A stretch of DNA of 64,000 nt, taken from IMG/VR virus record IMGVR_UViG_3300050336_000035, positions 1 to 64,000 of that record; one strand, given 5' to 3'. How positions within the stretch are numbered: position 1 is the first letter of the stretch; the number at the start of each line of letters is the position of its first letter. Both the position numbers and the translations under genes were made by a program. This stretch comes from a virus. Its lineage: Duplodnaviria > Caudoviricetes. Under the pieces are notes generated by a model, which worked only from the letters and a program-made list of their open reading frames with translations, had not been told where the DNA came from and ran no database searches. Below, in pieces: positions 4,772 to 63,791 of the stretch.

Positions 4772-6208
4772 TTAAAATACAATGTCAGCCATATATTTTC
4801 TGTTTCCATTTTCATATATGTACATTCTTTGACCTGCTTTTGAAGTTAATCTTTTACCCTTTGCATATGTATCCGTACCACAAAAACTTCTACAAACCAT
4901 AACTTCAACACTATGGAATTCATCTGATTTATTATGATGTACATGAGCCATATGTATTTCAGAAGGTTTTTCTATCATCATAGTTAAGTCACTAGCTACT
5001 TTATTAAATTGGTCTTCATGTCCATGAGTTTCAAATATGAGAACTCCACCAATTCTTTTTACTATAATGCCATCATCATAATAATTTTCTTCAAATTCAA
5101 TATTGTTTATTTCTGGGTTATTATTAATAATAAGTCTTAATCCCCAACCAATAAATTTTTCAAAGTTTTCTCTATCTAATGAAGCTTCTTTAGCAGGAAT
5201 TACTCTTCCATGATTACCCTCTAAGTCACTATATACAACCTTATTAAATTTTCTTGAAAAAGATATTAACATTTTTGCAATTGCAGTTGTAATTAATTTA
5301 ACTTGTTCAGTTACATCAATTTCAGACTCTAGTCTTATTGAATCATGAATGATACCAGCAATGCCATCTCCTAAAAAACTTACATGTAATTCAGAAATAT
5401 TATTTTCAATTCCTATTTCAATAACATCATGTGTTAATTTTTCAAATCTTTTATTAGCTTCATTAACAGAATATTTATTCCAATAATTAGTAGCTTTTAG
5501 TCCCATATGTATATCAGCCAAATCAAGCAAAGCCTGTCTATTACTAGGTATATATTGTCTTATCGGATAATTATTAATATCAATTTTTATAGTTGATAAA
5601 GCAGTGACAAGTTTATCATATATGTAGTCATTTTTACGATATTTATTCAACTCTTCTTTCATGAATTGAATCTCACGTTGCTGAAGTTTTATAAAATATT
5701 TTTCTTTTTTTCTTTCAAGAGTCTCATCTACTAATGAGTCAATATTATCATCATTATCTAATTCTTCATCCAAATAAGGGACATCATCATGAGTAATATT
5801 AAATGCACTTTTAACAAGCATAAAATCTCTACGAGGAATATCAACCCTCCTACATAATTCATTAATTGTTAACGGGTCATCATCACAGTATAAAAGTTTA
5901 ATCATTTTAACTTTTTCTTTAGTGATTTGAATTGACCTCGTTTTGGATGTAATTCTATAAAAATCCCCACAATCATCTATTTCAACTCTTTTAAATTCTT
6001 CTTCTCCAGATACATTTTCTGTTTTTGGTTGTTCTGATTTGTCTATAGTTTTATTTTGTTTTTTTAATTCTCTTCTAACGAAATTTCTCCACGCTTCACC
6101 ATTTTTAAATGGACAATTATATTTGTTATTAAGAGATTCCCAAGTTTCGCTAGGATACATACCTGCTCTAAAATTTATACCAATTTGAAGTAATTCTTCA
6201 TTACTCAA
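4772..6208 (-). CDS. Calcineurin-like metallophosphoesterase (YonJ-like)
   Basis: Motifs DIH, LGD, GNHG, THGH, AHVHH; position upstream of terminase genes as in SPbeta. Confidence 0.8.
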   Translation of the reverse strand: MSNEELLQIGINFRAGMYPSETWESLNNKYNCPFKNGEAWRNFVRRELKKQNKTIDKSEQPKTENVSGEEEFKRVEIDDCGDFYRITSKTRSIQITKEKVKMIKLLYCDDDPLTINELCRRVDIPRRDFMLVKSAFNITHDDVPYLDEELDNDDNIDSLVDETLERKKEKYFIKLQQREIQFMKEELNKYRKNDYIYDKLVTALSTIKIDINNYPIRQYIPSNRQALLDLADIHMGLKATNYWNKYSVNEANKRFEKLTHDVIEIGIENNISELHVSFLGDGIAGIIHDSIRLESEIDVTEQVKLITTAIAKMLISFSRKFNKVVYSDLEGNHGRVIPAKEASLDRENFEKFIGWGLRLIINNNPEINNIEFEENYYDDGIIVKRIGGVLIFETHGHEDQFNKVASDLTMMIEKPSEIHMAHVHHNKSDEFHSVEVMVCRSFCGTDTYAKGKRLTSKAGQRMYIYENGNRKYMADIVF

Positions 6209-6348
6209 TATTTTATACCTCGCAATATTTATTTTAATTTTAACTCTCGACCTTTAAAATTTAATAATGGAGCAGGGAAGAGACTTATACATCTAAACCC
6301 CACATATATAAAAGACACGTTTAAAGGTACGTGTCAGACCTTTTATGA

Positions 6349-6735
6349 TTAAATTTGTTCGATTTTTATTTTCTTTTTCTCAGGTTTGTTAAGTTTTAAA
6401 GAAATAAAAGTTAATCCATTTTTACTTGTTACCTGAATTTTTTCAATTTCATTCATTATGCTTTCTGCAATAGGTAATTCAAAAGAAGTGTCATATTTAT
6501 ATCCTTCAATTTCACTTGCTCCGCTTACTTTAATACCATAATCAGTTTCTTCAATTTTTACGTCTTCAGGATTAATACCAAGTGTCTTCACCGTGCATAA
6601 ATATGTATTTTCATCTTTCTTTACCCATCTACTAGGCAACATATCCTTCACATTTGAATTAAAAATTAATCTTCTTGGTTTTCCAAAACCTAGAGTAAAA
6701 AATTCATCAATTGCATCACTTAAAAAATCATTCAT
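6349..6735 (-). CDS. Hsp20/alpha-crystallin family protein
   Basis: LGINPEDVKI...IKVSG...KNGLTFISL small heat-shock pattern. Confidence 0.75.
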   Translation of the reverse strand: MNDFLSDAIDEFFTLGFGKPRRLIFNSNVKDMLPSRWVKKDENTYLCTVKTLGINPEDVKIEETDYGIKVSGASEIEGYKYDTSFELPIAESIMNEIEKIQVTSKNGLTFISLKLNKPEKKKIKIEQI

Positions 6736-7598: not shown

Positions 7599-9029
7599 TT
7601 ATAAGTTAATAACTGTACTATTATTAACTATAGTTACTTTACTTGTCCTATTTTTTCTACTAATTTCTTCTTGTAAATCATGAGCAAATTCAATCTTATT
7701 TTTAAACTCTGAATGAACTAATGCTATTTTTTCACACTGAAATTCAGAATAATACTCTATTAAACTGTCTCTTTGCATATGCCCACTAAAGCTTAATAAA
7801 TCTACAATATCGCATCTATTTGGATATGCCTTATTGTCTATCGAAATAGTCTTTTGTTTATGACCATTTTTTATTTTACTTGCAAGAGTAGCCTGAGAAG
7901 AATATCCAACAAATAAAATTGTAGCATTAGAATCTGGTAAAACTACTTTTGCCCAATTATGAGAACGCCCCATGTCCATCATGCCACTTGCCGAAATTAC
8001 AAGTTTTTTACCTTTAGTAGCCATCAAAACTTTACTGTCTTCAGACTCCTTGATAAACTTTAAGTTTTTCCAATTTAATATATCATCTAGCAATAGTTTA
8101 TCTTTACCTTCACAAACTTTATGATAGAGTCGAGTAACTTCAATAGCCAATGGACTATCAAGATATATAGGAACATTAAAAGAATCTCTATGTCCATAAA
8201 TCTCATATAATAAAGCTAAAATACTTTGCGTTCTATCAAGTGAGAAACAGGGAATAAGGACAGTACTGTTTTTGTCAATACAACTTCTTTTTACTACCAT
8301 CTCTATTTTTTCAACATCTTTTAAACGCTTTTTATCTGTTGATGTGGTTGTATTTCCAGCATATGTACACTCACCAATAACCAAATCCGCCTTTTTACAA
8401 GATACGAATGGTTCTACAAATGGTTTGTTTGAAATAGAGATATTACCTAAATCCCCAGAAAAATAAATCTTTTTGTTATGGTTATTCTGTTTGATAAACA
8501 ATTCAATTTGTGCTGACCGTATTATGTGATAAGCAGGGAGAAAATTTATAGATATTTCATCATTCAATTGAATTAATTCATTAAAATTATGTTCTTCAAT
8601 ATAATTTAATGTATTATAAACATCTTCATCATAATATAAAGGTGAATATTTTATATCGGATTTCTTGTTTAAAAATTCACTATCTCTTTGCATTATAAAA
8701 GCACTATCTTTAAGCATACATTTTAAAAATAATGTACTATCTTTTGTACATATTATTTTAGCTTTACAACCTTCTCTATATAATCTCGGTATTAAAAAAG
8801 CGTGGTCAGCATGAAAATGTGAAATTAATATATAGTCTATTTCCGATACTTTAAATCCAAATTTACGACTATTAAATTTATAATCATTCTTAATATTATT
8901 TGTTTGAATTAAACCACAATCTAAAAGTATTTTATATTTATCAGTTTCAACTAGTATCATAGACCCAGTAACTCCCTCAGAATTTCCACCGATAAATTTT
9001 ACTTTTATATTATTTTTCTTTTTAGCCAT
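7599..9029 (-). CDS. MBL-fold/beta-CASP ribonuclease
   Basis: GVTGS, DCG, HFHADH, SGDLG, ECTY, ASGM, FSGH, VHSE motifs. Confidence 0.88.
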   Translation of the reverse strand: MAKKKNNIKVKFIGGNSEGVTGSMILVETDKYKILLDCGLIQTNNIKNDYKFNSRKFGFKVSEIDYILISHFHADHAFLIPRLYREGCKAKIICTKDSTLFLKCMLKDSAFIMQRDSEFLNKKSDIKYSPLYYDEDVYNTLNYIEEHNFNELIQLNDEISINFLPAYHIIRSAQIELFIKQNNHNKKIYFSGDLGNISISNKPFVEPFVSCKKADLVIGECTYAGNTTTSTDKKRLKDVEKIEMVVKRSCIDKNSTVLIPCFSLDRTQSILALLYEIYGHRDSFNVPIYLDSPLAIEVTRLYHKVCEGKDKLLLDDILNWKNLKFIKESEDSKVLMATKGKKLVISASGMMDMGRSHNWAKVVLPDSNATILFVGYSSQATLASKIKNGHKQKTISIDNKAYPNRCDIVDLLSFSGHMQRDSLIEYYSEFQCEKIALVHSEFKNKIEFAHDLQEEISRKNRTSKVTIVNNSTVINL

Positions 9030-18692: not shown

Positions 18693-19526
18693 CTATTTCA
18701 ATAATTTAATTATTATATTATTATCTAATAACAAATTTTTTAAAAAATCATATCCATCCTCAGTTACCAATATAGTTTCAAGAGTATTCCCATTATCATA
18801 TGTAATAATTTCTGTTAAAAAATAAGTATTTAAATATTTTTTATTAGGTAAATTTCTTTTATCATCATTATAATAAAAAATATTAAGTTCCCTTAGATTT
18901 TTGAAAATAGTATTGTATGGACATTTTAATTTATATCCATTAGTTAATATATGACATACAGTATTTTTAACTGTTGAAGGAAATGTAATATTATTTACAA
19001 TATCATGTTTATATTCATTTTCTTTATTATTGTTTCTAGGTTTTTGGTTTTTGGTAAGAGTATTTGATTTGTTATATAATTTTTTATAAGTACCAGTTTT
19101 TTCAATATGTTTTTTAATAGTAATCAATGTATTTATATTTTTATCTGAAATTAATACATCATTAAACATAGACTTTTCTTTATTCAATACTTTTTCCAAT
19201 GTGTATTCTAAATTATATCCATTCTCAACGCTATCATATTCTTTAATATATTTATCTTCATATATTAACAAAATACATTGTTGAACTATAAGATAAAAAT
19301 CATTACTTATTTGTTCAATTATTTCAAAATTAAAATGTTCTTTTCCATATATGTTGTAGTCCTGTTGCAGTTTAAAAGAATGATGTGTATTATTATTTAA
19401 ATCTTCTTTATGTTTATCCCATCTTTCATAAATATCTAAACTTTCACCAATATATACTTTATTATTTATATTGTTTATAATTTTATATATTCCTGCAATC
19501 CTATTTTCTTTTTTTAATCTTGTCAT
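18693..19526 (-). CDS. GIY-YIG nuclease fused to KilA-C/ANT-like domain
   Basis: GIYKI...VYIGES...RW..H; C-terminal LP.KKY...T..VTEDG..FL. Confidence 0.75.
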   Translation of the reverse strand: MTRLKKENRIAGIYKIINNINNKVYIGESLDIYERWDKHKEDLNNNTHHSFKLQQDYNIYGKEHFNFEIIEQISNDFYLIVQQCILLIYEDKYIKEYDSVENGYNLEYTLEKVLNKEKSMFNDVLISDKNINTLITIKKHIEKTGTYKKLYNKSNTLTKNQKPRNNNKENEYKHDIVNNITFPSTVKNTVCHILTNGYKLKCPYNTIFKNLRELNIFYYNDDKRNLPNKKYLNTYFLTEIITYDNGNTLETILVTEDGYDFLKNLLLDNNIIIKLLK

Positions 19527-19805: not shown

Positions 19806-20438
19806 TTAATATGTCAATGAACATACTAAATTATCTTCATCAGATTGTAATATTCCTATATATCTTAATGTTATTTCTGGAGAACTATGACCAAGTATTT
19901 TTTGTACCATTACTATATCTTTACTGTTTTCATATAGATGATATCCAAATGTTTTTCTTAATGTGTGTGTTGCTGTATCATATGATTCAATTTGCTTGAA
20001 AGCATCTTTTAATATTCTATATGCTTGAACTCTTCCAATAGGAGAGTTGGGTGATTCATTCTCTACATCTATATAGACTGTATTCATTTTGTTTGTTAAT
20101 GGGTTCTTTAATTTAGTTTTTTTCTTTACGGTTGAACTAAATTTTTTACTCGAAAATAAATATTCATTATCTTTCTTTCCCTTAATAAATAAATCAAGCT
20201 CATCTTTAAATGTTGGATGTATAATTACTTTTCTTTTCTTGCTTGTTTTATTTTCTGTTGTTTCAAAATAGTTTTTACCTTTAATATCAGATACTTTTAA
20301 TTTTATGATATCTGATATTCTATATCCTGAATATATACCAAGCTTAAATAAAATATAGTTTCTGTAATTTGATTTCTTTAGTATATCCTCTATTTTATGA
20401 ATCTGTGATATCTCTCTTATTGGTTGTACTGTGTTCAT
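19806..20438 (-). CDS. Tyrosine recombinase (catalytic domain only, MNTVQPIR type)
   Basis: Complete catalytic set: GYRISD, K, HTLRKT, LGHSS, LRYIG. Confidence 0.92.
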   Translation of the reverse strand: MNTVQPIREISQIHKIEDILKKSNYRNYILFKLGIYSGYRISDIIKLKVSDIKGKNYFETTENKTSKKRKVIIHPTFKDELDLFIKGKKDNEYLFSSKKFSSTVKKKTKLKNPLTNKMNTVYIDVENESPNSPIGRVQAYRILKDAFKQIESYDTATHTLRKTFGYHLYENSKDIVMVQKILGHSSPEITLRYIGILQSDEDNLVCSLTY

Positions 20439-41101: not shown

Positions 41102-42118
41102 GTGAAAAAATTAAATGTATCATGGACTGTAAAAAAAATAGTATATAATATTGATAAAGGAAATGTATTGTTTAACCATCCTATTCAACGTAAATCGGGA
41201 CAATGGTCAGATGAACAAAAAAGTTTATTAATACATAGTTTGTTATCAGATTATCCTGTACCGCCATTATATGCTGTACAAGACCAAAATGAAAATAGTA
41301 GTAAATATTCTGTTTTGGATGGAAAACAAAGACTTACTGTTTTACAGAATTATATTAAAGACGGATGGAAATTAATGAAAGAAATGCCGGAAGTAATAAT
41401 AAATGAAACTACATATGATATAAGTGGTTTAAAATTTTCACAACTTCCAGAAGATGCAAGAGAGGAATTGGAATCAGCAAATTTATTAATGTACATATTT
41501 GAGGATTGTTCAGATGATGAAATTGAAGAAATATTTTACCGTCTTAATAATGGAACAGCATTAACTAAAGACCAAAAAACTCGTATAAGATTAGGTGATA
41601 GGCTTGCTAGATTTATTGATGAAGTTTTAGAACTAGACTTCTTTAAGACTAAAGCATATTTTTCACCATATCAATTAAAAAGAGCTGAAGACCAAACATG
41701 TATATTACAAACATTAATGTTGCTTGTTGATTACAAATATAAAACATTTAATAATAGTGATGTTTTAGAATTTGCAGAATATTATCGAGAAAACTATAAA
41801 GAAGATGATTTGCAAGAATGTATTAAGCTATTTAGATTGCTTGATAACGCATTTACTGAAAAACATAAACAGATTAAAAAAATTAATATACCTATGTTTG
41901 TAATGGCATTAAAGGCAACATTAGATATGGATTCTTCCTTTGAATTATATTCTGGTTGGGTAAATAAATTTATTGATAGTTATAATCCAAAATGTGAATA
42001 TGCACAGTATTGTGGACAAGGAAGTACTCATAAAGATAAAATTTTAAAACGTCTTGATTTAACTTATAATGATTTAATAGATTATATTTCTGAAAAGGAG
42101 GTACACAATGAGTTTTAA
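41102..42118 (+). CDS. DUF262 (ParB/GmrSD-N-like) protein
   Basis: HPIQR...W...KSLLIHSLL...P..LY...LDGKQRLT...EIFYRLNNG. Confidence 0.85.
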   Translation: MKKLNVSWTVKKIVYNIDKGNVLFNHPIQRKSGQWSDEQKSLLIHSLLSDYPVPPLYAVQDQNENSSKYSVLDGKQRLTVLQNYIKDGWKLMKEMPEVIINETTYDISGLKFSQLPEDAREELESANLLMYIFEDCSDDEIEEIFYRLNNGTALTKDQKTRIRLGDRLARFIDEVLELDFFKTKAYFSPYQLKRAEDQTCILQTLMLLVDYKYKTFNNSDVLEFAEYYRENYKEDDLQECIKLFRLLDNAFTEKHKQIKKINIPMFVMALKATLDMDSSFELYSGWVNKFIDSYNPKCEYAQYCGQGSTHKDKILKRLDLTYNDLIDYISEKEVHNEF

Positions 42119-43250
42119 TATAGATATTAAAAAAATAAAACCTCATCCTAGAAATAAAGAAATTTATGGTGAGGAAAATATTAATGAACTTGCAGAACAA
42201 ATTATAAAAAGCAACTGGATAAATCCTATTCTTATTAATGATGATAATATAATTATTAGTGGACATAGACGTTATCTAGCATGTTTAATAATTGGTTTAT
42301 TAGAAATTCCTTGTGAACGTATTACATTTAAAGATAAAAACGATGAACTTGAAAGGCTTCTTCTTGAGAATCAATATAGAGAAAAAACAATCTATCAAAA
42401 AATGAAAGAATCAGAAGTTTGGCAAGAGATTGAACCAGAATTAGCTAAAAAAAGGAGATTAGCGAATTTAAAACAAAATTCCGATAAGGACAATTGTCCT
42501 ATTCGGCAAGATGGTCAAGTTCGCGATATTATTGCTGAGAAAGTAGGATTGGGTTCTGGACGTACATATGAAAGAGCAATGCCTGCTGTAAAGAAAATAG
42601 ATGAATTAAAATCACAAGGAAAAGAAAAAGATGCTGAATTTCTTACAGTTGTTTTAAATGGAAGTGTAAGAGGGGCAAAGGATTTGTCTGAAATAGAATC
42701 ATTTGATGAAATATCTAATGAGATTAAAGAAAAAGTAATTAATAAGGAAATTCCTGTGATAAATGCAGTAAAACAAATACGAAATGACTTAGGAATAATA
42801 ACTGATAATAAAAAACAAACAATAAAAAAGAATAGTGAAAAAATCAAGAAGACGAAAATTTGTAATAAATGTGGGGAAGAAAAATCAATATTAGAATTTT
42901 ATGAAGGTAAAAATTATTGTAGAGATTGTCAAAATTCTAATAGAACAAGACAGTTTAAAGATGTTCATGGTAATATTATTCCTACAGACAAAGAAAAATT
43001 AAAAGGAATAGATTTAGATGCTATAGAAGCTGATATAAAAGATACAAATAAAAGCGTTAAAAATAATGATTATGACACTATTACTATGGAAATACAAGCA
43101 AATATAAGTATTTTTATGAACTCAATAAGAAGAATTGTAGAAAGTGAAGATTCTTATGAGGAAATGGATATCTGTAATAAAAATAAGTTATTAGATGCTA
43201 TTAATATGGTGGAAGACACTATTAATATAATAAAAAATAAATTAATTTAA
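42108..43250 (+). CDS. ParB/Srx N-terminal domain protein with HTH and Zn finger
   Basis: PHPRN..IYG...IISGHRRY...EN; IAEKVGLGSGRTYER; CNKC...CRDC. Confidence 0.82.
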   Translation: MSFNIDIKKIKPHPRNKEIYGEENINELAEQIIKSNWINPILINDDNIIISGHRRYLACLIIGLLEIPCERITFKDKNDELERLLLENQYREKTIYQKMKESEVWQEIEPELAKKRRLANLKQNSDKDNCPIRQDGQVRDIIAEKVGLGSGRTYERAMPAVKKIDELKSQGKEKDAEFLTVVLNGSVRGAKDLSEIESFDEISNEIKEKVINKEIPVINAVKQIRNDLGIITDNKKQTIKKNSEKIKKTKICNKCGEEKSILEFYEGKNYCRDCQNSNRTRQFKDVHGNIIPTDKEKLKGIDLDAIEADIKDTNKSVKNNDYDTITMEIQANISIFMNSIRRIVESEDSYEEMDICNKNKLLDAINMVEDTINIIKNKLI

Positions 43251-56607: not shown

Positions 56608-57219
56608 ATGGTAGAATTCATTCTAGGGACATTTATAGTAGTTTTAATTCGCAATAAGATAGTCAGTAATATAAACAGTAAGGCAGAAAAAGAATTGTAT
56701 TCTGTGTATCATTTTAAGCCTTTGTTTAAACATTGGAGTATTTATCCATCATTGATTTGTGTTATTATTTACTTATATTTAGAATATTGTGTTTTTAGAA
56801 GAAATTTTTGGTTTATTCCATATCAGCAATGGTTTAGAATAATTACTATTATGTCATATGTTCCATTAGTTTATAAATATAAGTTGCTTGAGAGTATATC
56901 CAAAAAGCATAAAAGCATCTGTTTTTCACCTTATTTAATTTCTCTTTATCTTATCCTTTTAGGTACAGGGTTAAATTTGATAGCTATGGCATATAACAAT
57001 TGGAAAATGCCTATATTTCCAACGATGACGTATTCCACAGGTTACGCGACTACTTTTATTGATAATAAGCATATTCTTGGAAACATGTATACAAAATTAA
57101 TTCCTTTGACTGATATATTTGATAGTGGATATATGTGTTTTAGCTTAGGTGATGTATTTTTTAGAATGTTTAGTTCTATTTTAATATTTTTTTCAATAAA
57201 AAAAATAAATAAATATTAA
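56608..57219 (+). CDS. DUF5317-like membrane protein
   Basis: G..LN.IA..YNNWKMP...H...TKL.PLTDIF...FSLGD. Confidence 0.78.
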   Translation: MVEFILGTFIVVLIRNKIVSNINSKAEKELYSVYHFKPLFKHWSIYPSLICVIIYLYLEYCVFRRNFWFIPYQQWFRIITIMSYVPLVYKYKLLESISKKHKSICFSPYLISLYLILLGTGLNLIAMAYNNWKMPIFPTMTYSTGYATTFIDNKHILGNMYTKLIPLTDIFDSGYMCFSLGDVFFRMFSSILIFFSIKKINKY

Positions 57220-57303
57220 AATAATTGTTGACTTATTTATGCAATGGTATTATACTATAAATGTACCAAATAAAACCACTACATAAGGAGTGAATAAAAT
57301 AAA

Positions 57304-58092
57304 ATGCAAAATTGGATTAACGCTTTATTGAATTGTTTATTAGTATCAATTCCAGAAGAAATAGTATGGGTTACATTAACTCTTGTTTTACTAAAAAGAT
57401 TTGATTTATTAGATTGGCGAAGATGGAAACGAAATATAAAGTGGTTAAGTATTCCAATTATACCTGTAGCAATTTCTATTAATATATTAAAATATATTTT
57501 TGTTATACCTAGACTAGTAATGAGTATTAGTACATTAATTATGTTAATTTTATTGATTATTTATATAGTTAAAAAAACTGATAAGCTTAAAAATACTAAA
57601 ATATACAAAGTTATATTATTTACATTGTTTGGAAGTTGCTTAATTGCTTTTACTGAGGCAATTTATATTCCTATTATACTATTTATGACAAATTTAAAAA
57701 TATCCCAAATAAATATAGATATTTTGAACAATTTTTTATTTTCATTACCAGAAAGAATAATTCAAATTTGTTTTATTTTATACATCATTTATGGCAAAAC
57801 ATATAAGTTAAAATATAACTATGGTTTTAAAATTTTTGAAAATAAACTTAATGTTTTTAGTTTATTTTCAATTATTATAATTTTAGTAGTATTTTGGTTA
57901 ATATCATTAAATGTTTTTTCTAATCAGGGTATATTTAGAGATTTCCCTATTAATTTAAAAATTTTATTAGGTACTGCAATGAATCTTATGCCAACTCTAT
58001 TTTTTGTAATAATGGTTATTAATAATTTAACTTTTATTCAAAAAAATATTCAAATAGAACAAAAATACTCAGATATGTTGGATGAAAAATAG
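57304..58092 (+). CDS. Polytopic membrane protein, possibly AgrC-sensor-like, no kinase domain
   Basis: About 7 hydrophobic helices; own promoter (57228); directly upstream of agrD. Confidence 0.6.
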   Translation: MQNWINALLNCLLVSIPEEIVWVTLTLVLLKRFDLLDWRRWKRNIKWLSIPIIPVAISINILKYIFVIPRLVMSISTLIMLILLIIYIVKKTDKLKNTKIYKVILFTLFGSCLIAFTEAIYIPIILFMTNLKISQINIDILNNFLFSLPERIIQICFILYIIYGKTYKLKYNYGFKIFENKLNVFSLFSIIIILVVFWLISLNVFSNQGIFRDFPINLKILLGTAMNLMPTLFFVIMVINNLTFIQKNIQIEQKYSDMLDEK

Positions 58093-58110
58093 AAAGTTGG
58101 GGTGTTTTAA

Positions 58111-58230
58111 ATGAAAAAATTGAGTGTTATTGTCAGCTTAGTTACACTTATAGGTATTATATGCTCAAATATGGTGGCTTCATGGTACTTGCTTAGTCAG
58201 CCAGAAACTCCATCAATACTTTCAAAGTAA
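58111..58230 (+). CDS. agrD: AgrD-type cyclic autoinducer peptide precursor (39 aa)
   Basis: Not in ORF track. MKKLSVIVSLVTLIGIICSNMVASWYLLSQPETPSILSK matches the clostridial AgrD pattern A-[C/S]xxxx-xQPExP; agrB 1.1 kb downstream. Confidence 0.85.
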   Translation: MKKLSVIVSLVTLIGIICSNMVASWYLLSQPETPSILSK

Positions 58231-58261
58231 TTTAGGTTACTAAAGAAAGTATTAATTATCT

Positions 58262-58305
58262 TTTATATCGTATAGGAAACTTATTAAAGCCCTATACGAT
58301 ATAAA
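58262..58305 (+). terminator. Long hairpin after agrD
   Basis: TTTATATCGTATAGG / CCTATACGATATAAA 15-bp perfect stem. Confidence 0.65.
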
Positions 58306-58394
58306 TATAATTATTTTAAAAAAACTATTGACAATGATTTGGTAATAATATAAAATAATTACATAAACGATATTACAAAAAGGAGTTTAAAAAA

Positions 58395-59273
58395 ATGTTA
58401 GAATTGTTTAGAAAATTTAATGTGAATGAGATTACCAATATACCAACAGAAATTGAAATAATAAATAAAAGATTATCGTATGAATTAGAAACTGTACTAC
58501 AAGATACAACAATAAATATGTTTGCTAGACGTTGCAACCTATTAAGTACGATTCAACTAGAAGATATTTTAAATTTAAAGCTTACTCAGAAACCATCAAG
58601 AGAGCTACTTAGAATTATAGCTAGTAACAGTAATGGAAATGTTACATATAGAAGGCTATATGAAATTTGCAATTATTCTGAATTTGATGAAGAAGAAGAC
58701 AAACGGTGGTTGGATTTTAAACCGAAAAGGGGTCAGATATATTATATAGATTTAGGATTTTCAATTGATAGTGAACAGAGTGGAGTAAGACCATGCTTAA
58801 TATTACAGAATGATGTTGGTAATGATCGAAGTACGACATTAGTGGTTCTCCCAATTTCGACACGATTAAAAAAATTCGGAAAAACACATGTAAGACTTAC
58901 TCGTGAAAACGGGTTAAGAGAAGAATCATATATATTAGCTGAACAAATACGTGTAGTAAGTAAACGTAGAATATATTATAGTGGTTGTGCAAATTTAATT
59001 ACAACTTTATCAGAAGAAAAAATGGAAGAAGTAAGAGTAGCTGTCGAGTTTGAATTAGGTCTTGAAGATTTATCATTTAATGAAGAAAAGGCTTATATAT
59101 TAGCTAATGCAGTAAGAACTTTAAAAAGAAATATTAAAGTAAAACAATCAAGAGATTTAATTGACATATATAAAGAAAAATATAATGAATTCATATCATA
59201 TTGTAAAAAGTTTAACAGAGACCCAGAGGTTGTTTATAGTAGCTATAAAACCTTAGATATTCAATATGCTTAA
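58395..59273 (+). CDS. mazF: XRE-like HTH fused to MazF/PemK endoribonuclease
   Basis: KRGQIYYIDL...SEQSGVRPCLILQNDVGN...PIST...THV...ILAEQIRVVSKRRI; N-terminal INMFARRC...KPSRELLRIIA...VTY..L; own promoter at 58328. Confidence 0.85.
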   Translation: MLELFRKFNVNEITNIPTEIEIINKRLSYELETVLQDTTINMFARRCNLLSTIQLEDILNLKLTQKPSRELLRIIASNSNGNVTYRRLYEICNYSEFDEEEDKRWLDFKPKRGQIYYIDLGFSIDSEQSGVRPCLILQNDVGNDRSTTLVVLPISTRLKKFGKTHVRLTRENGLREESYILAEQIRVVSKRRIYYSGCANLITTLSEEKMEEVRVAVEFELGLEDLSFNEEKAYILANAVRTLKRNIKVKQSRDLIDIYKEKYNEFISYCKKFNRDPEVVYSSYKTLDIQYA

Positions 59274-59294
59274 AAGAAGGAGATAGAATACAGA

Positions 59295-59948
59295 ATGCAA
59301 AATATATTTACATTTAAGTTTATAGATGCTTGGTCAATATATTGTGCAAAACGATTATATGAACCAATTAAAGATAAACCAGAAATACTTAGACAACTAA
59401 AAGTATTAATTGAAAATATAAAACATGTAACATATGATGACAATGAATTAAATGAACAAAGTTATATAGATATTTTTCAATATGCTTTTAAAGCGATTTA
59501 TGGTGCAATTATTAAGGGTGGACTGTTACTGCTGATAGCATCGTTATTGAATATATTAGTACCAACCTTGGTAGTAACAGCTTCCTTTGGTATAATTAGG
59601 GTGTTTGCAGGAGGGTTACATTTTAAAAGTTATACTCTATGCACATATGTGTCATTAATTTGTTTCCTTATTGGAGGGGTAATAGGAAGTGCCTTTAAAT
59701 ATAATTTATATATTAATATAATAGTATATATCTTTGCATTAACTAACTTTTTATTATATGCTCCAGTAGAAAATGAAAATCTCCCTATCAAACCCCACAA
59801 AAAAATAATATTTAAACGAATAGCTATAGTAAATACAACTATATTGTTACTCTTAAACACAATATTCTTATACAATATATCTATAACAGTTGGTGTTTTT
59901 ATAGCAGGATTAATTACTCTTCCTATTTTTAATAGTAAATTTAAATAA
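59295..59948 (+). CDS. agrB: AgrB peptide-processing membrane protease
   Basis: IRVFAGGLHFKSYTLC (catalytic H and C) and YAPVEN. Confidence 0.9.
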   Translation: MQNIFTFKFIDAWSIYCAKRLYEPIKDKPEILRQLKVLIENIKHVTYDDNELNEQSYIDIFQYAFKAIYGAIIKGGLLLLIASLLNILVPTLVVTASFGIIRVFAGGLHFKSYTLCTYVSLICFLIGGVIGSAFKYNLYINIIVYIFALTNFLLYAPVENENLPIKPHKKIIFKRIAIVNTTILLLLNTIFLYNISITVGVFIAGLITLPIFNSKFK

Positions 59949-60097
59949 AGTTTTGACAAAATAAATGACATATATGTTACATTTTCAACAATAATATAAA
60001 GTCTTATCTTATTTTGTCGATTTATAATATATAAGGTCGATATCTTATATTTGAAATGTCGAGAGATTAAGCGTATTATAATTTTTACATAGATATA

Positions 60098-60145
60098 TTG
60101 CAAACAGGGAAATTAACATTTATAATTGATTTAGAACATATGTTC
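60098..60145 (+). promoter_or_regulatory. sigmaA promoter with LexA/SOS box
   Basis: TTGCAA-17-TATAAT, then GAACATATGTTC (60134-60145), an exact GAAC-N4-GTTC. Confidence 0.8.
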
Positions 60146-60167
60146 TTTTTAAGGAGGGAAAAAGAAA

Positions 60168-60443
60168 ATGAATTATTGTATGCAAGATTGTGAAACAGGG
60201 AACTTTGTATCAAGTAATTCAATTTTAATTGACGGAGGTAAATTATATTATTCTACTTTTACAGGTAGAGACCTATGTGGAGGGTTAGAATATAATTTAA
60301 CACAAGAACAGGCAGAAAAAAAGATGAGCAATTTTATAAAAAAAATGAACAAATATGGATTACATAAAAATTTAAAAATTGTAGGTGTAGATATTACCGC
60401 TTTAAACATAGGAAATATATATACTGTTGAGTATGTAATATAA
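60168..60443 (+). CDS. Hypothetical protein, probably SOS-inducible
   Basis: AAGGAGG RBS directly after the SOS box. Confidence 0.7.
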   Translation: MNYCMQDCETGNFVSSNSILIDGGKLYYSTFTGRDLCGGLEYNLTQEQAEKKMSNFIKKMNKYGLHKNLKIVGVDITALNIGNIYTVEYVI

Positions 60444-60559
60444 TTGAATAAATCTTAAAATAATTTGTTTATTAGCTTGACTTTTTGTACATAATATAAT
60501 ACAATTCAATTATTATATTAGATATTTACAATTATCTATTGAAAGGTGTGTATTGAAGT

Positions 60560-61900
60560 ATGTACAAAGAGAAGCAAGAACAACTGTATTCAAGGATTAA
60601 TAGTATTATAGCTAATACTGATTATCGAATATTTAAAGAAGCTGTAGGAACTGAGTTGAGAAAAAGAGGTCTAGATTCTAGCATCATAATATTAGCATCT
60701 GAAATTATCATGAAAAATGCTAAAGTTGAGCAATTAGTTAATGAAGAAGATAATGATATAAAATTATTATTTTTCTTTGCTGATGCTCTTAATAAGGCTT
60801 TAAGTGATAATGAAGGTGCTATTATTATTTTAGAAAATTATTTTTTAAAAAGTGAAATAGAAGAATTAACGGATTATACAATTAAAGAAGGTAAAGAAAG
60901 TATTTTTCCACTTACAATTTATGATGTTACTCAGTTTAATGACCACCATTGGGAAGGGAGTATAACTGCTCAATATCAAGATAAGTGCAATAGTTATAGA
61001 GTACCTTATTATAATCCTAATACACAGCGTAACCCCAAGAGAACAAAGAAGGGTGATAAAATAAATGTTGACCCTAAAAAAGTACTTGCTATTAGAGATG
61101 AATTATTAAGTGGAGAGTACGAAACAGATTCAATTATCTGGAATATTTTAAAAACTGGAGATGAAAAGTTTACTTATAATCCTAAAAATAGAACATTAAC
61201 AATATTTGAAGGAAGTATTATTAATATAGTTGATGGACAACACCGAAAAGAAGCTAATTCTGCTGCTATAGCTATTAATCCTAATTTGGATTACAAATGG
61301 CCTCTTAGTATTTTTAATGTTAGTGAGATTAAGGCACATAGTATAATGGTTCAGAAAAACAAACAGACGAAAATGCCTGAAGAATGGATTCAAACAAAAG
61401 ATTATAGTAGATATGAAAATGATGTTATTAGTAAGATGAAAGATGAAAAATCTAACCTTTTTAAAATTATGGGTGAAGATGAAAAACAAATTGCCAACAA
61501 TCAATCTTTAGTTAAAAAATCTAATATAGCATTAGCTATTAAAGAAATTTATCAAGAAGAAATATCTGATAATGATGACAGAAGACAACTAGCTAGATGG
61601 TTGTCAGAATTCTTTGATTATATGATAAAACTATATTCTTATGAATTTATTGAGGAGTCTTTAAAAGTAAAAGAAGTTAGTTTTATAAATTGGAAAAATA
61701 TGTTTTTTGGCTATATAGCGTTATCGAGAGCTTTGAGAAATAAAGATAATTGGCGTGAAGTATTTAAAGAAAAAATGTCTTCTATAGATTTTAGTAATAC
61801 AAATCCATTATGGCAAACTTTTGGAATATTAAATACAAAAGATGCCAATGCAACTTTAAGGAAACATTTGTATAATTTATTTAAGGAAGGTGTTGAATAA
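60560..61900 (+). CDS. DGQHR/DndB-like ParB-fold protein (SPbeta YopQ/SroE-like)
   Basis: YNPNTQR...INIVDGQHR; upstream of and coupled to a recombinase-fold repressor. Confidence 0.7.
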   Translation: MYKEKQEQLYSRINSIIANTDYRIFKEAVGTELRKRGLDSSIIILASEIIMKNAKVEQLVNEEDNDIKLLFFFADALNKALSDNEGAIIILENYFLKSEIEELTDYTIKEGKESIFPLTIYDVTQFNDHHWEGSITAQYQDKCNSYRVPYYNPNTQRNPKRTKKGDKINVDPKKVLAIRDELLSGEYETDSIIWNILKTGDEKFTYNPKNRTLTIFEGSIINIVDGQHRKEANSAAIAINPNLDYKWPLSIFNVSEIKAHSIMVQKNKQTKMPEEWIQTKDYSRYENDVISKMKDEKSNLFKIMGEDEKQIANNQSLVKKSNIALAIKEIYQEEISDNDDRRQLARWLSEFFDYMIKLYSYEFIEESLKVKEVSFINWKNMFFGYIALSRALRNKDNWREVFKEKMSSIDFSNTNPLWQTFGILNTKDANATLRKHLYNLFKEGVE

Positions 61901-62937
61901 TGAGTTTTGAATATGTTAAATTTTCAAATATAGATGAATTAGTTTTTCAATATAACCAAGAATTGAAGAAAGAGTATTTAAGACAAAAACCATTAGAGAC
62001 AGCAAGAAGTGATTATAAAACTATGGTATCTGTTGATGAATATGAAACATTATTAAAAAAACCTGTATATGATTTTTCGCTAGTAGAACGAAATGAATTG
62101 ATGATGATGAAATTCAGAAATACTACTGTTCATGCAGTTCTTTCGACAGCTTCAAAGATTAAAGGATATATAGATTATTGTGTTAGAGCAGGTGAAGTAC
62201 CTCACAATCAAAATATTTTTGACACTTTTATTAAATCTGAAGCTATGAAATTTGTAAGTAAACATGCTACTGAATTTAGATATATAACTCCAGAACGGTT
62301 AAATGAATATATTCATATTTTAAAAAATTGGCAAGACAAATGTCTAATAAGATTAATAAATGAAGGGGTAAGGGGAAGAACGGTTAAAGGTGGAACATTA
62401 GAAGAAATTATTAATCTACAAATTAAACCTAATAGTGAAGACACAAAAAATTGTATTTTAAGATTAGTAGGTAATGATGGTTCTTTTCGAGAACTTCAAG
62501 TAACTCGTGAAGTAATGGATTTAGTTTTAATGACATATCAGTCAGAAGAATATTTACCAAATAACGGAATTGATGATAAATCTGTAGAAAAGAAAAAAGG
62601 CGCTAAAAAATATACAATTAATAGATATAAAAATTATGTATTTTGTGCTTTAGGAAATAGTAAATTTGGAACATTAAATCCAATAACAATAAATGCTAGA
62701 CTTCAAAAAATTCAGGAATATTGTGATAATCAATTTATTACTGTCTATAATTTATATATGAGTGGAATGATAACTAAAGCAATAGAAATTTACAAAGAAA
62801 AAGGTGAATTAACTTCACAAGATTATATAAATATTTGTTTTAAGTATAAATATGGTGGAGATACGCCTGAAAAATATATGTCTAAATTGAAATATGAAGT
62901 AGAAACCTATTTAAAAGGTGGTATTCAAGATGCTTGA
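61900..62937 (+). CDS. Degenerate tyrosine-recombinase-fold repressor (MrpR/YopR/SroF-like)
   Basis: SAM-like N-terminus (K.VYDFS..E...YIDYC), EGVRG...EIINL; HxxR box replaced by NLYMSG. Confidence 0.72.
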   Translation: MSFEYVKFSNIDELVFQYNQELKKEYLRQKPLETARSDYKTMVSVDEYETLLKKPVYDFSLVERNELMMMKFRNTTVHAVLSTASKIKGYIDYCVRAGEVPHNQNIFDTFIKSEAMKFVSKHATEFRYITPERLNEYIHILKNWQDKCLIRLINEGVRGRTVKGGTLEEIINLQIKPNSEDTKNCILRLVGNDGSFRELQVTREVMDLVLMTYQSEEYLPNNGIDDKSVEKKKGAKKYTINRYKNYVFCALGNSKFGTLNPITINARLQKIQEYCDNQFITVYNLYMSGMITKAIEIYKEKGELTSQDYINICFKYKYGGDTPEKYMSKLKYEVETYLKGGIQDA

Positions 62938-63379
62938 GTATTTAAATAGAAAAGAAAAGATTCTTGTTGGTCTAAAAAACGGATTGACTAACAAAGGATA
63001 TTCTTTTAAAACACTTGCAGGAATTAATGGTAAAATTGATTTATTACAAGAAATAAAAACAAATTATAACTATGAAGTTTTAAAGAATCTTATTGAAAGT
63101 ACAAATTACTCTATAATAAATCAAATCAAAGATGTAAAACATGGATTAGATAATGTTTCTATCATAAATGATAGGAAAAGTGATTTCTATTTATATGCTA
63201 TTAAAACAGATGATATTAAAGAAAAAGATAATGAAGTTTTAAGAGAATCTTTTCTAAGTGATAATACATTAATTTATATTGCTGAAAAAAGCATTGGAAA
63301 TTTTTATGTTATTTTTAGTAAAAAGAAATATGAAGGTAAACACGAATATATTGCTAATCGTTGGCAGCAAGGGAGATAA
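62930..63379 (+). CDS. Hypothetical protein
   Basis: Start moved to MLEY, overlapping previous stop. Confidence 0.6.
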   Translation: MLEYLNRKEKILVGLKNGLTNKGYSFKTLAGINGKIDLLQEIKTNYNYEVLKNLIESTNYSIINQIKDVKHGLDNVSIINDRKSDFYLYAIKTDDIKEKDNEVLRESFLSDNTLIYIAEKSIGNFYVIFSKKKYEGKHEYIANRWQQGR

Positions 63380-63383
63380 TACT

Positions 63384-63791
63384 ATGAATATAGGAGAAAA
63401 AATTCAAAAATTAAAAGAATCTATGAATTTTAAGGATTATCAAGAGTTTGGAAAAGCAGTAGGACTACCTGGAGATTGGATAAAAGATGCTTTATCAAAA
63501 AAAGAATCAATCACTACAGTTGATATTACTAGATTAATTAAAATTGCAGAATACTTTAATGTTACATTAGATTGGTTGTTAAAAGATAATAATGAATGGG
63601 TTATAAAGTATAAAGAAGGATTTAAAGAAGGACTTACATCTGATGATATAGGCATAATGCTGGATGAAATTGATAATAAATTATGTGAAACGAATAATAA
63701 ATTTTATGGCTATAATATGAATAAAGATACTATAATTTTATGTAAAGATGCTTTAGATGAAGTGAAAAAGTTAATTAAAGATAATTTATAA
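63384..63791 (+). CDS. XRE-family HTH repressor
   Basis: IGEKIQKLK...LIKIAEYFNVTLDWLL. Confidence 0.82.
   Translation: MNIGEKIQKLKESMNFKDYQEFGKAVGLPGDWIKDALSKKESITTVDITRLIKIAEYFNVTLDWLLKDNNEWVIKYKEGFKEGLTSDDIGIMLDEIDNKLCETNNKFYGYNMNKDTIILCKDALDEVKKLIKDNL

Follow-up and report, generated by a model that had tools for sequence, protein, structure and literature searches.

A phage-borne agr-type cassette with a MazF fusion protein, a candidate kinase-free peptide signaling system upstream of an SPbeta-type repressor region

We analyzed a gene cassette in the first 64 kb (64,000 nucleotides, hereafter the window) of virus record IMGVR_UViG_3300050336_000035, a complete genome of 167,493 bp with direct terminal repeats. 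Among sequencing runs, one DNA data set with the genome was listed, an anaerobic digester metagenome that is probably its source, and no RNA data set. The genome belongs to an SPbeta-like phage with a GC content of about 26%, a large terminase, an integrase and many small open reading frames (ORFs). In the cassette, genes for an AgrD propeptide and an AgrB peptidase flank a gene for a MazF protein fused to a helix-turn-helix (HTH) domain, and the whole is placed upstream of homologs of the SPbeta genes yopQ and yopR. Our preferred interpretation, to which we assign about an even chance of being correct, is that the phage has its own kinase-free, Agr-type lactone signaling, which would feed into an SPbeta-type lysis-lysogeny switch via the HTH-MazF protein.

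All ten genes between positions 56608 and 63791 are located on the plus strand in the ORF listing. They code for, in order, a DUF5317 protein, Mem262, AgrD, HTH-MazF, AgrB, a 91-amino acid (aa) protein with a LexA box before its gene, YopQ (SroE), MrpR (SroF), a further ORF and an XRE protein, where Mem262 is the name given here to a 262-aa membrane protein without a known family. By its layout the cassette consists of two units, DUF5317-Mem262-agrD and HTH-MazF-agrB, with a predicted hairpin and a putative promoter in between. The features of the cassette are as follows.

56608..57219, plus strand: DUF5317-family membrane protein of 203 aa, the first gene of the cassette (PF17248, E 7e-12).
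57304..58092, plus strand: Mem262, seven-helix protein of 262 aa with no kinase domain and with a conserved acidic cytoplasmic tail, a candidate peptide sensor or transducer.
58111..58230, plus strand: agrD, propeptide of 39 aa with a predicted lactone ring Ser-Trp-Tyr-Leu-Leu, followed by SQPETPSILSK.
58262..58305, plus strand: hairpin with a 15-bp stem, directly after agrD (dG -18.6 kcal/mol).
58328..58356, plus strand: promoter-like TTGACA-17-TAAAAT before the HTH-MazF gene, the best match of the region (11/12).
58395..59273, plus strand: HTH-MazF, 292 aa, with an XRE-type HTH at about residues 15-95, a MazF/PemK core at residues 107-225 and a helical C-terminal tail at residues 226-292.
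59295..59948, plus strand: AgrB peptidase/cyclase, 217 aa (PF04647, E 1.9e-29).

The genes, their order and their coordinates had been listed in an earlier reading of this DNA, made by a model from the letters alone (the sequence-only reading), and every gene was found to be present. Searches with hidden Markov models supported the family names proposed there for AgrB, DUF5317, PemK (residues 111-217 of HTH-MazF, E 6.6e-25) and the MrpR domains, with AgrB and the MrpR domains above the cut-offs. The same reading had noted that the window contains neither AgrA nor a kinase. This holds for the complete 167-kb genome, in which no match was obtained to HATPase_c_5 (PF14501, the AgrC-type HPK10 kinase domain) or to LytTR (PF04397, AgrA-type), while the controls were matched. 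AimR was searched for with a single query, SPbeta YopK, and no match was obtained in the 167-kb genome at E <= 1, in a search that had no positive control.

The residues His109 and Cys116 of AgrB, located seven residues apart, are invariant in seven orthologs. They have the same spacing as the catalytic residues His77 and Cys84 in Staphylococcus aureus AgrB, and the phage AgrB is, as judged from its sequence, catalytically intact. The identity of AgrD was less clear from the profile search, in that the match to TIGR04223 (E 0.014, 15.6 bits) is below the cut-off of 19. The name given to this gene in the sequence-only reading is kept because the architecture recurs in 17 different orthologs, all of which have a hydrophobic leader, an invariant serine, four hypervariable residues and a constant [NSHY][QE]PxxP tail. 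The residues that follow the serine are different in all 17 (WYLL, WLML, WYLF, WLFY, IGWF, IAWF, HTLF, FMGL, AAWL, WLFS, WLFT, WFFA, LMWL, WFWL, MFFS, WLGA, WAFS). Such a set of 17 rings on a constant scaffold matches the way in which specificity has diversified in the groups of autoinducing peptides (AIPs) and in AimP. An upstream cysteine (in ICSNM, 6-7 residues before the serine) was considered as the ring nucleophile and rejected; it is absent from 10 of the 17 orthologs and the serine is invariant, and the ring is therefore predicted to be a serine lactone. Together, AgrB and AgrD should make a five-residue lactone, cyclo-SWYLL, with an N-terminal tail of undefined sequence. The AgrD-type motif occurs only once in the 167-kb genome.

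A hairpin is present 3' of agrD in 17/17 loci, with dG values of -17 to -24 kcal/mol and with stem sequences that differ from each other, and it is a probable terminator or attenuator between two transcription units. The three closest relatives (L002, L003 and L005) have a motif of the TTGACA-17-TAAAAT type at the corresponding position. Since promoter-like sites are overall no commoner than in shuffled sequences, the putative promoter ahead of HTH-MazF is suggestive only.

Relatives of the cassette were gathered by three routes, using the HTH-MazF protein, AgrB and Mem262, and all three routes converged on one arrangement. About 20 distinct contigs share this order, many of them 135-230 kb long, always upstream of yopQ/yopR and with protein identities to the phage of the window that go down to 27-40%. 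The arrangement is far beyond chance, because it is conserved in so many distinct contigs, which answers the question about neighborhood conservation that was raised in the sequence-only reading. In full, the order is a stand-alone PemK gene (in some), DUF5317, Mem262, AgrD, HTH-MazF, an ORF of about 100 aa (in one subfamily), AgrB, a Mem262 paralog (in some), a small ORF, YopQ and MrpR. Every locus has the genes for HTH-MazF and AgrB side by side, apparently as one transcription unit, and in 17 of 18 lineages agrD and the Mem262 gene immediately precede HTH-MazF. Among the sampled loci of this phage group, none had agrBD apart from HTH-MazF, and a DUF5317 ortholog occupies the same position in 15 of the 17 loci that have both Mem262 and AgrD. 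Judged from these sequences, the agr cassette is old and conserved within the phage lineage.

A collection of 50,697 deposited phage genomes gave no match to AgrB in a tblastn search at E 1e-5 and no match to the whole region in a blastn search, and the cassette is thus in no isolate phage of that collection. In a scan of genome contigs with the AgrB alignment, only two contigs from metagenome-assembled genomes (MAGs) were identified, both of which are phage genomes themselves, and no cultured host.

The genes that follow the cassette were identified as parts of an SPbeta-type repressor region, with the following features.

60134..60145, no strand assigned: LexA (Cheo) box GAACATATGTTC, of the form GAAC-N4-GTTC, over a promoter-like site at 60098-60126.
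60168..60443, plus strand: ORF of 91 aa under the LexA box, with a strong ribosome-binding site.
60560..61900, plus strand: YopQ/SroE homolog, DGQHR/DndB-like, 446 aa (PF14072, E 2.9e-11; phrog_5732, E 2.9e-60).
61900..62937, plus strand: MrpR/SroF/YopR homolog, an integrase-fold master repressor of 345 aa (MrpR_N_CB, E 8e-10; MrpR_C_cat, E 1e-7).
62918..63379, plus strand: ORF of 153 aa without a known family, conserved downstream of the repressor.
63384..63791, plus strand: XRE-family HTH protein of about 135 aa, with weak matches to HTH_3/HTH_19, RstR-like, phrog_8 and phrog_4.

The YopQ homolog is 27% identical to the SPbeta yopQ and phi3T proteins over 83-87% of the length (tblastn, E 1e-22 to 6e-24). 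The MrpR domains (PF22822, 39.7 bits; PF22823, 32.3 bits) both score above the cut-off of 27, SPbeta yopR (L014) was matched by phmmer, and the YopQ and MrpR genes abut. These matches agree with the suggestion in the sequence-only reading that the downstream pair corresponds to yopQ and yopR. In SPbeta, the order is yopK(aimR)-yopL(aimP)-yopM-N-O-P-yopQ-yopR, with yopK and yopL before yopQ and yopR, and the agr cassette therefore occupies the place of arbitrium, as had also been suggested. The 153-aa ORF has orthologs in L003, L006, L011, L019, L021, L045, L046 and L053. The XRE gene probably starts with the ATG at 63384, the longest ORF beginning at 63279, and its orthologs in the relatives code for proteins of 129-143 aa.

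The LexA box GAACATATGTTC is the only perfect GAAC-N4-GTTC sequence within the 64-kb window and is located directly before the ribosome-binding site of the 91-aa ORF. A perfect LexA box, the only one of its locus, was identified in 13 of 18 related loci, always within the gap between AgrB and YopQ, and the relatives have ORFs of 71-88 aa at the same place, which are too diverged for mutual matches. The 91-aa protein had no sequence match among solved PDB chains, including YopT. In SPbeta and phi3T, SroF is inactivated by Sar (YopT), a small antirepressor under LexA control, and a high level of arbitrium overrides induction (bioRxiv 10.1101/2025.11.27.690993). By analogy of position and regulation with Sar, the 91-aa ORF is a candidate SOS-induced antirepressor.

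The MazF core of the fusion protein is 39-42% identical to MazF of Bacillus subtilis and S. aureus (Foldseek E ~3e-10), and the folds are closely similar (Z 19.2, rmsd 1.7, 113 aligned residues; VIA). The catalytic Arg132 is invariant among the homologs, and residue 155, which is aligned with Thr48 of B. subtilis MazF, is a serine or threonine in all of them. Searches of Pfam with the isolated N-terminal and C-terminal parts gave no match, and the HTH was recognized by its fold only. The best fold match to residues 15-95 was 2ofy_B (Z 9.5, rmsd 3.2, 76 aligned residues), followed by CapH, C.BclI, SinR, ImmR, the 434 and P22 repressors and HigA antitoxins (Z 6.3-7.8). The C-terminal tail, which is shorter in one subfamily, matched generic helical hairpins only, such as the NS1 RBD (Z 8.0). 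No AbrB-type MazE (PF04014) was identified in the whole genome and no small ORF beside HTH-MazF; antitoxins of the ribbon-helix-helix type were not searched for separately. HTH-MazF is itself the only PemK gene in the 167-kb genome.

A different role for this protein would be that of an auto-inhibited RNase with a fused antitoxin-like HTH, serving in superinfection exclusion, abortive infection or prophage stabilization, with agrBD as a linked but separate moron. Such a toxin-antitoxin or defense function would fit with the MazF core, which is near the housekeeping MazF of Firmicutes and looks catalytically competent from its residues, with the resemblance of the HTH fold to HigA-type antitoxins among other XRE proteins, and with the lack of a separate AbrB-type antitoxin in the genome. 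It would also fit with the extra stand-alone PemK genes in relatives and with the PemK genes without an HTH near yopQ/yopR in Clostridium phage c-st and in L005. It does not account for the adjacency of HTH-MazF and agrB in every locus, for agrD and Mem262 upstream in 17/18 lineages, or for the finding that agrBD is never apart from HTH-MazF in the sampled loci of the group. Also, the placement in the lysis-lysogeny control region, and not among morons, argues for regulation, and we consider this explanation quite improbable.

Stand-alone MazF/PemK genes (124-140 aa) are located a short distance upstream of the cassette in many relatives (L044, 1524-1928; L048, 6483-6884; L049, 5845-6231; L020, 2697-3119; L057, 2151-2525), while the phage of the window has the fused one only. 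In the BoNT/C-converting phage c-st (L013, AP008983.1), CST027 is a PemK gene with a C-terminal extension (4829-5491) and CST028, which comes after it, codes for a 218-aa protein of no family (5702-6358); the two genes immediately precede the yopQ/yopR homologs of that phage. The members of a more distant subfamily encode, between HTH-MazF and AgrB, a conserved soluble protein that belongs to no Pfam family, has about 100-160 aa and contains the motif PLDSWxI...LLHKNKxGRxNKxHIQ (L006, 8895-9203; L008, 2068-2373; L011, 6378-6701; L019, 7639-7938; L020, 7522-7995). This protein, which is absent from the phage of the window, could be an antitoxin or a co-regulator.

Mem262 has no family in Pfam or NCBIfam. 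The AlphaFold2 (AF2) model (pLDDT 84, pTM 0.75) has seven long helices and a C-terminal cytoplasmic helix. Residues N10, P17, E18, D34, D37 and P230 are near-invariant in the family, which also conserves a cytoplasmic loop, KRFDLLD, and an acidic tail, IQxxYxNMxDD. An exhaustive phmmer search identified 117 relatives, all of 250-326 aa and none fused to a kinase, and no kinase-fused or longer relatives were found by profile searches either. A search of 48,161 PDB representatives with the AF2 model gave a best Z of 7.3 and helical fragments only, with nothing that covers the domain, and an Atlas search with the same model returned its own viral clusters only. A function as a CPBP/MroQ-type leader peptidase was considered and rejected, since Mem262 has no Pfam match and lacks the His motifs of CPBP/Abi peptidases such as MroQ, which process AgrD leaders. 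On sequence grounds, Mem262 is a new family. It is polytopic and without a kinase domain, as the sequence-only reading had described it, whereas kinship to AgrC was not established, and "kinase-less AgrC" would name a proposed role and not a homology.

Every close relative of Mem262 that was sampled is located within the cassette, and besides DUF5317, Mem262 is the sole polytopic partner that always accompanies AgrD. The sequence-only reading had suggested that the AgrD ring should co-vary with the 262-aa protein, and the distances between rings and between Mem262 proteins are indeed correlated (Spearman 0.46). The partial Mantel correlation was 0.35-0.53 (p <= 0.0006) when controlling for YopQ, MazF or AgrB; the correlations of the ring with AgrB and MazF vanished when controlling for Mem262, and there was none with YopQ. 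Structure prediction of complexes, another of its suggestions, gave a score of 0.45 for Mem262 with HTH-MazF as compared to 0.00 for the best control, with at least 64% contact agreement between runs and a partner pLDDT of at least 75, which is weak support only. In the calibration of these scores, 58 of 80 solved complexes and 2 of 110 mismatched pairs came up to the mark.

Several observations weigh against phage-owned signaling through Mem262 and HTH-MazF. In the calibration, passing scores of 0.60 or less were obtained for only 7 of the 80 solved complexes and for both of the mismatched pairs that passed, and the score of 0.45 falls in this band, where a pass is more often wrong than right. 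As agrD starts only 18 bp after the Mem262 gene, physical linkage in mosaic phages can explain the correlation with the ring. The comparison of the Mem262 family profile with three AgrC-type kinases from MAGs (hhalign) gave probabilities of 0.3-2%, which are not significant, and a match of the Atlas model of Mem262 to a HATPase_c_5 kinase (TM 0.61) was not reproduced with the better AF2 model. The conserved membrane-embedded charges E18, E118 and R151 are equally compatible with an enzyme or a transporter, and the more distant relatives of about 300 aa are chromosomal and unlinked to agr. The role as receptor is the weakest link of the interpretation. In addition, the loci of the L008-L010 group have kept HTH-MazF and AgrB, but within the 3.4-5.2 kb that was sampled they show neither DUF5317 nor Mem262 nor AgrD. 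In phage c-st, the yopQ/yopR homologs are preceded by a PemK gene that lacks an HTH, and there are no agr genes; the link between MazF and the repressor region therefore needs no peptide and is wider than the agr cassette. Finally, two MAGs that hold related phage contigs (G001 and G002) have several agrB genes of their own, adjoining HATPase_c_5 kinases.

These host loci, one of which has an AgrD that appears to be Ser-based, are relevant for another explanation, namely that the lactone is read by, or blocks, AgrC-type kinases of the host and alters quorum-sensing outputs of the host, such as sporulation, biofilm or metabolism, to the benefit of the phage. If so, Mem262 and DUF5317 would serve in export, leader processing or producer immunity, and HTH-MazF would be an unrelated neighbor. 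The conserved intramembrane charges of Mem262 and its lack of detectable homology to AgrC are compatible with such host manipulation or eavesdropping, and there is a precedent in phiCDHM1, where the phage agr genes are thought to act on host signaling (PMC3901668). On the other hand, about 20 lineages show a strict linkage of the cassette with HTH-MazF and the repressor region, and a ring that is different in every phage is hard to square with a matching host receptor. Furthermore, the host is only weakly indicated when a phage contig of 170 kb is binned into a MAG, and for leader processing Mem262 lacks both a Pfam match and the peptidase motifs mentioned above. We regard host manipulation as unlikely.

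The pairing of a hypervariable peptide with a co-diverging polytopic membrane protein is also typical of toxin and immunity pairs, and some relatives have a second Mem262 paralog after agrB. The lactone might accordingly be a bacteriocin-like weapon or a kin-discrimination factor, with Mem262 and DUF5317 as immunity proteins of the lysogen. To our knowledge, the products of AgrB and AgrD are signals and not toxins. The peptide would have only about 5-9 residues, and a weapon leaves both the linkage to HTH-MazF and the position at the repressor unexplained. We consider this explanation very improbable.

A second paralog of Mem262, of 269-283 aa, was identified directly after agrB in L047 (9746-10597), L050 (9611-10432), L053 (9824-10687) and L057 (7478-8287), and may act as a second receptor or represent an immunity-like copy. 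A distant chromosomal relative of 309 aa (L015, 6001-6930) is located downstream of the germination genes sleB (Hydrolase_2) and ypeB, with no agr genes nearby. A chromosomal DUF5317 gene in MAG G002 (L038, 93-2010) is located directly after, and nearly abuts, a gene for a membrane-anchored HD-GYP protein. Because of this copy, the DUF5317 family is not specific to agr, and there are hints that DUF5317 proteins are general partners of membrane signaling proteins.

Returning to phage-owned signaling, we infer each functional step of the mechanism below, starting from what was observed, namely the identities of the genes, their conserved residues and synteny, and the features of the non-coding DNA. 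AgrB would turn AgrD into a phage-specific lactone, and the peptide would report the density of cells carrying the same type of phage or infected by it. Mem262, possibly together with DUF5317, would read the peptide at the membrane and, in the absence of a kinase, signal by direct binding, so that it holds or releases HTH-MazF via the conserved cytoplasmic loop and the acidic tail. HTH-MazF would be the output, through operator binding by the XRE domain, RNA cleavage by the MazF core, or both, and would bias the SroE/SroF switch. The SOS arm would act separately, via the small gene with the LexA box. Arbitrium exerts its effect in phi3T through MazF, whose activity promotes lysogeny at high levels of AimP (PMC10769878). 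Because of this effect of MazF in phi3T, a high level of peptide is proposed to bias the phage of the window to lysogeny, or to keep the prophage silent despite SOS induction of the small antirepressor.

In its most far-reaching form, which we think would rather fail than hold, the cassette would be a second phage-to-phage communication system, with an extracellular lactone, new kinase-free receptors of seven transmembrane helices that capture or release a bifunctional HTH-MazF, both an RNase and a regulator that binds operators, and a private channel for each lineage through the hypervariable rings; the lysis-lysogeny decision would then be set by a MazF of the phage. Arbitrium, which is confined to elements of the Bacillus group, is the best-characterized of the peptide systems with which phages gauge their recent infections. 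The cassette suggests that, in anaerobic Clostridia, large SPbeta-like phages have solved the same problem with different parts, namely the cyclic-peptide chemistry of AgrB and AgrD, a membrane protein of a new family and a MazF of their own, where phi3T manipulates that of the host. If this is true, it would mean that AIPs can be transduced without a kinase and that there are at least 17 orthogonal pairs of peptide and receptor in nature, and it would provide an independent test of MazF activity as a general lever on lysogeny. The mechanism of transduction would itself be new if Mem262 is a kinase-free receptor with HTH-MazF as its target. The conserved small gene with a LexA box would extend the induction logic of Sar and SroF beyond Bacillus.

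Other genes of interest in the window include two TnpB-type genes in the early region of the phage (45779-47215 and 54611-55810; Cas12f1-like_TNB/OrfB_IS605, phrog_506 transposase), with no TnpA among the ORFs scanned. The genes for a 338-aa protein with a GmrSD_N domain and a 380-aa protein with a ParB_N domain adjoin (41102-43250) and may code for a DNA-modification-dependent nuclease or an anti-defense pair of the phage. In the minus-strand arm, a beta-CASP/metallo-beta-lactamase RNase-like protein of 476 aa (7599-9029, minus strand) and a GIY-YIG nuclease of 277 aa (18693-19526, minus strand) were identified, and a short Phage_integrase-family protein of 210 aa is located at 19806-20438.

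We compared the cassette to known systems. Full-text literature searches for the cassette gave only phiCDHM1 (PMC3901668) and general reviews (PMC11945551), and DUF5317 was not mentioned in the literature searched in this way. The MazF core resembles that of the MazEF system of B. subtilis (EndoA/YdcE-YdcD) in sequence, fold and the catalytic Arg and Ser/Thr, but lacks an AbrB-type MazE, and within an agr cassette it forms one protein with an XRE HTH on its N-terminal side and a helical tail on its C-terminal side. In the SdpC-SdpI-SdpR system of B. subtilis, a peptide triggers the sequestration of an HTH repressor at the membrane by SdpI, a kinase-free polytopic protein. We use that system, alongside the weak complex prediction, as a working analogy only and claim no kinship in sequence or fold; SdpR differs in being an ArsR-type repressor without an RNase domain.

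The agr systems of S. aureus (agrBDCA) and Clostridium perfringens (agrBD with VirSR) have the same catalytic His and Cys in AgrB, and the AgrD of C. perfringens shares the hydrophobic leader, the five-residue ring and the xQPxxP tail. The C. perfringens sequence, CLWFT-HQPEEP, aligns with the ring and tail of the phage AgrD. In contrast to both systems, the phage genome has no AgrC kinase and no AgrA/LytTR, and the ring nucleophile is always a serine, for which a lactone is predicted. The AIPs of the S. intermedius group are also lactones. The phage cassette differs further in that agrD is located upstream of agrB and is split off from it by the putative terminator, the putative promoter and the HTH-MazF gene, and in that it is carried by a phage at the lysogeny switch. 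The agr3 locus (agrB, agrD, agrC) of the Clostridioides difficile phage phiCDHM1 is likewise phage-borne, without agrA and with a host in the Clostridia (PMC3901668). The AgrC histidine kinase is retained in phiCDHM1 and the agr genes of that phage look recently acquired from the host, whereas Mem262, DUF5317 and HTH-MazF are the partners in the cassette described here.

The comparison with arbitrium shows similarities in the context and differences in the parts. In both cases, a peptide gene with a hairpin is located just upstream of a yopQ/yopR-type pair in a large SPbeta-like temperate phage, the peptide varies between related phages, and a small gene with a LexA box is located beside the repressor (10.1101/2025.11.27.690993), here upstream of yopQ and in SPbeta and phi3T, as Sar, downstream of yopR. 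The only peptide gene of the module is agrD, with agrB nearby; the predicted product is a cyclic lactone made by AgrB, whereas AimP is a linear hexapeptide from a Sec-exported propeptide. SPbeta AimR found no match in the phage genome, and with a membrane protein as the candidate receptor, sensing would be extracellular. Both systems are associated with MazF, by a functional link in phi3T (PMC10769878) and by the gene alone in the present case, where MazF is encoded by the phage and fused to an HTH, while arbitrium uses the MazF of the host.

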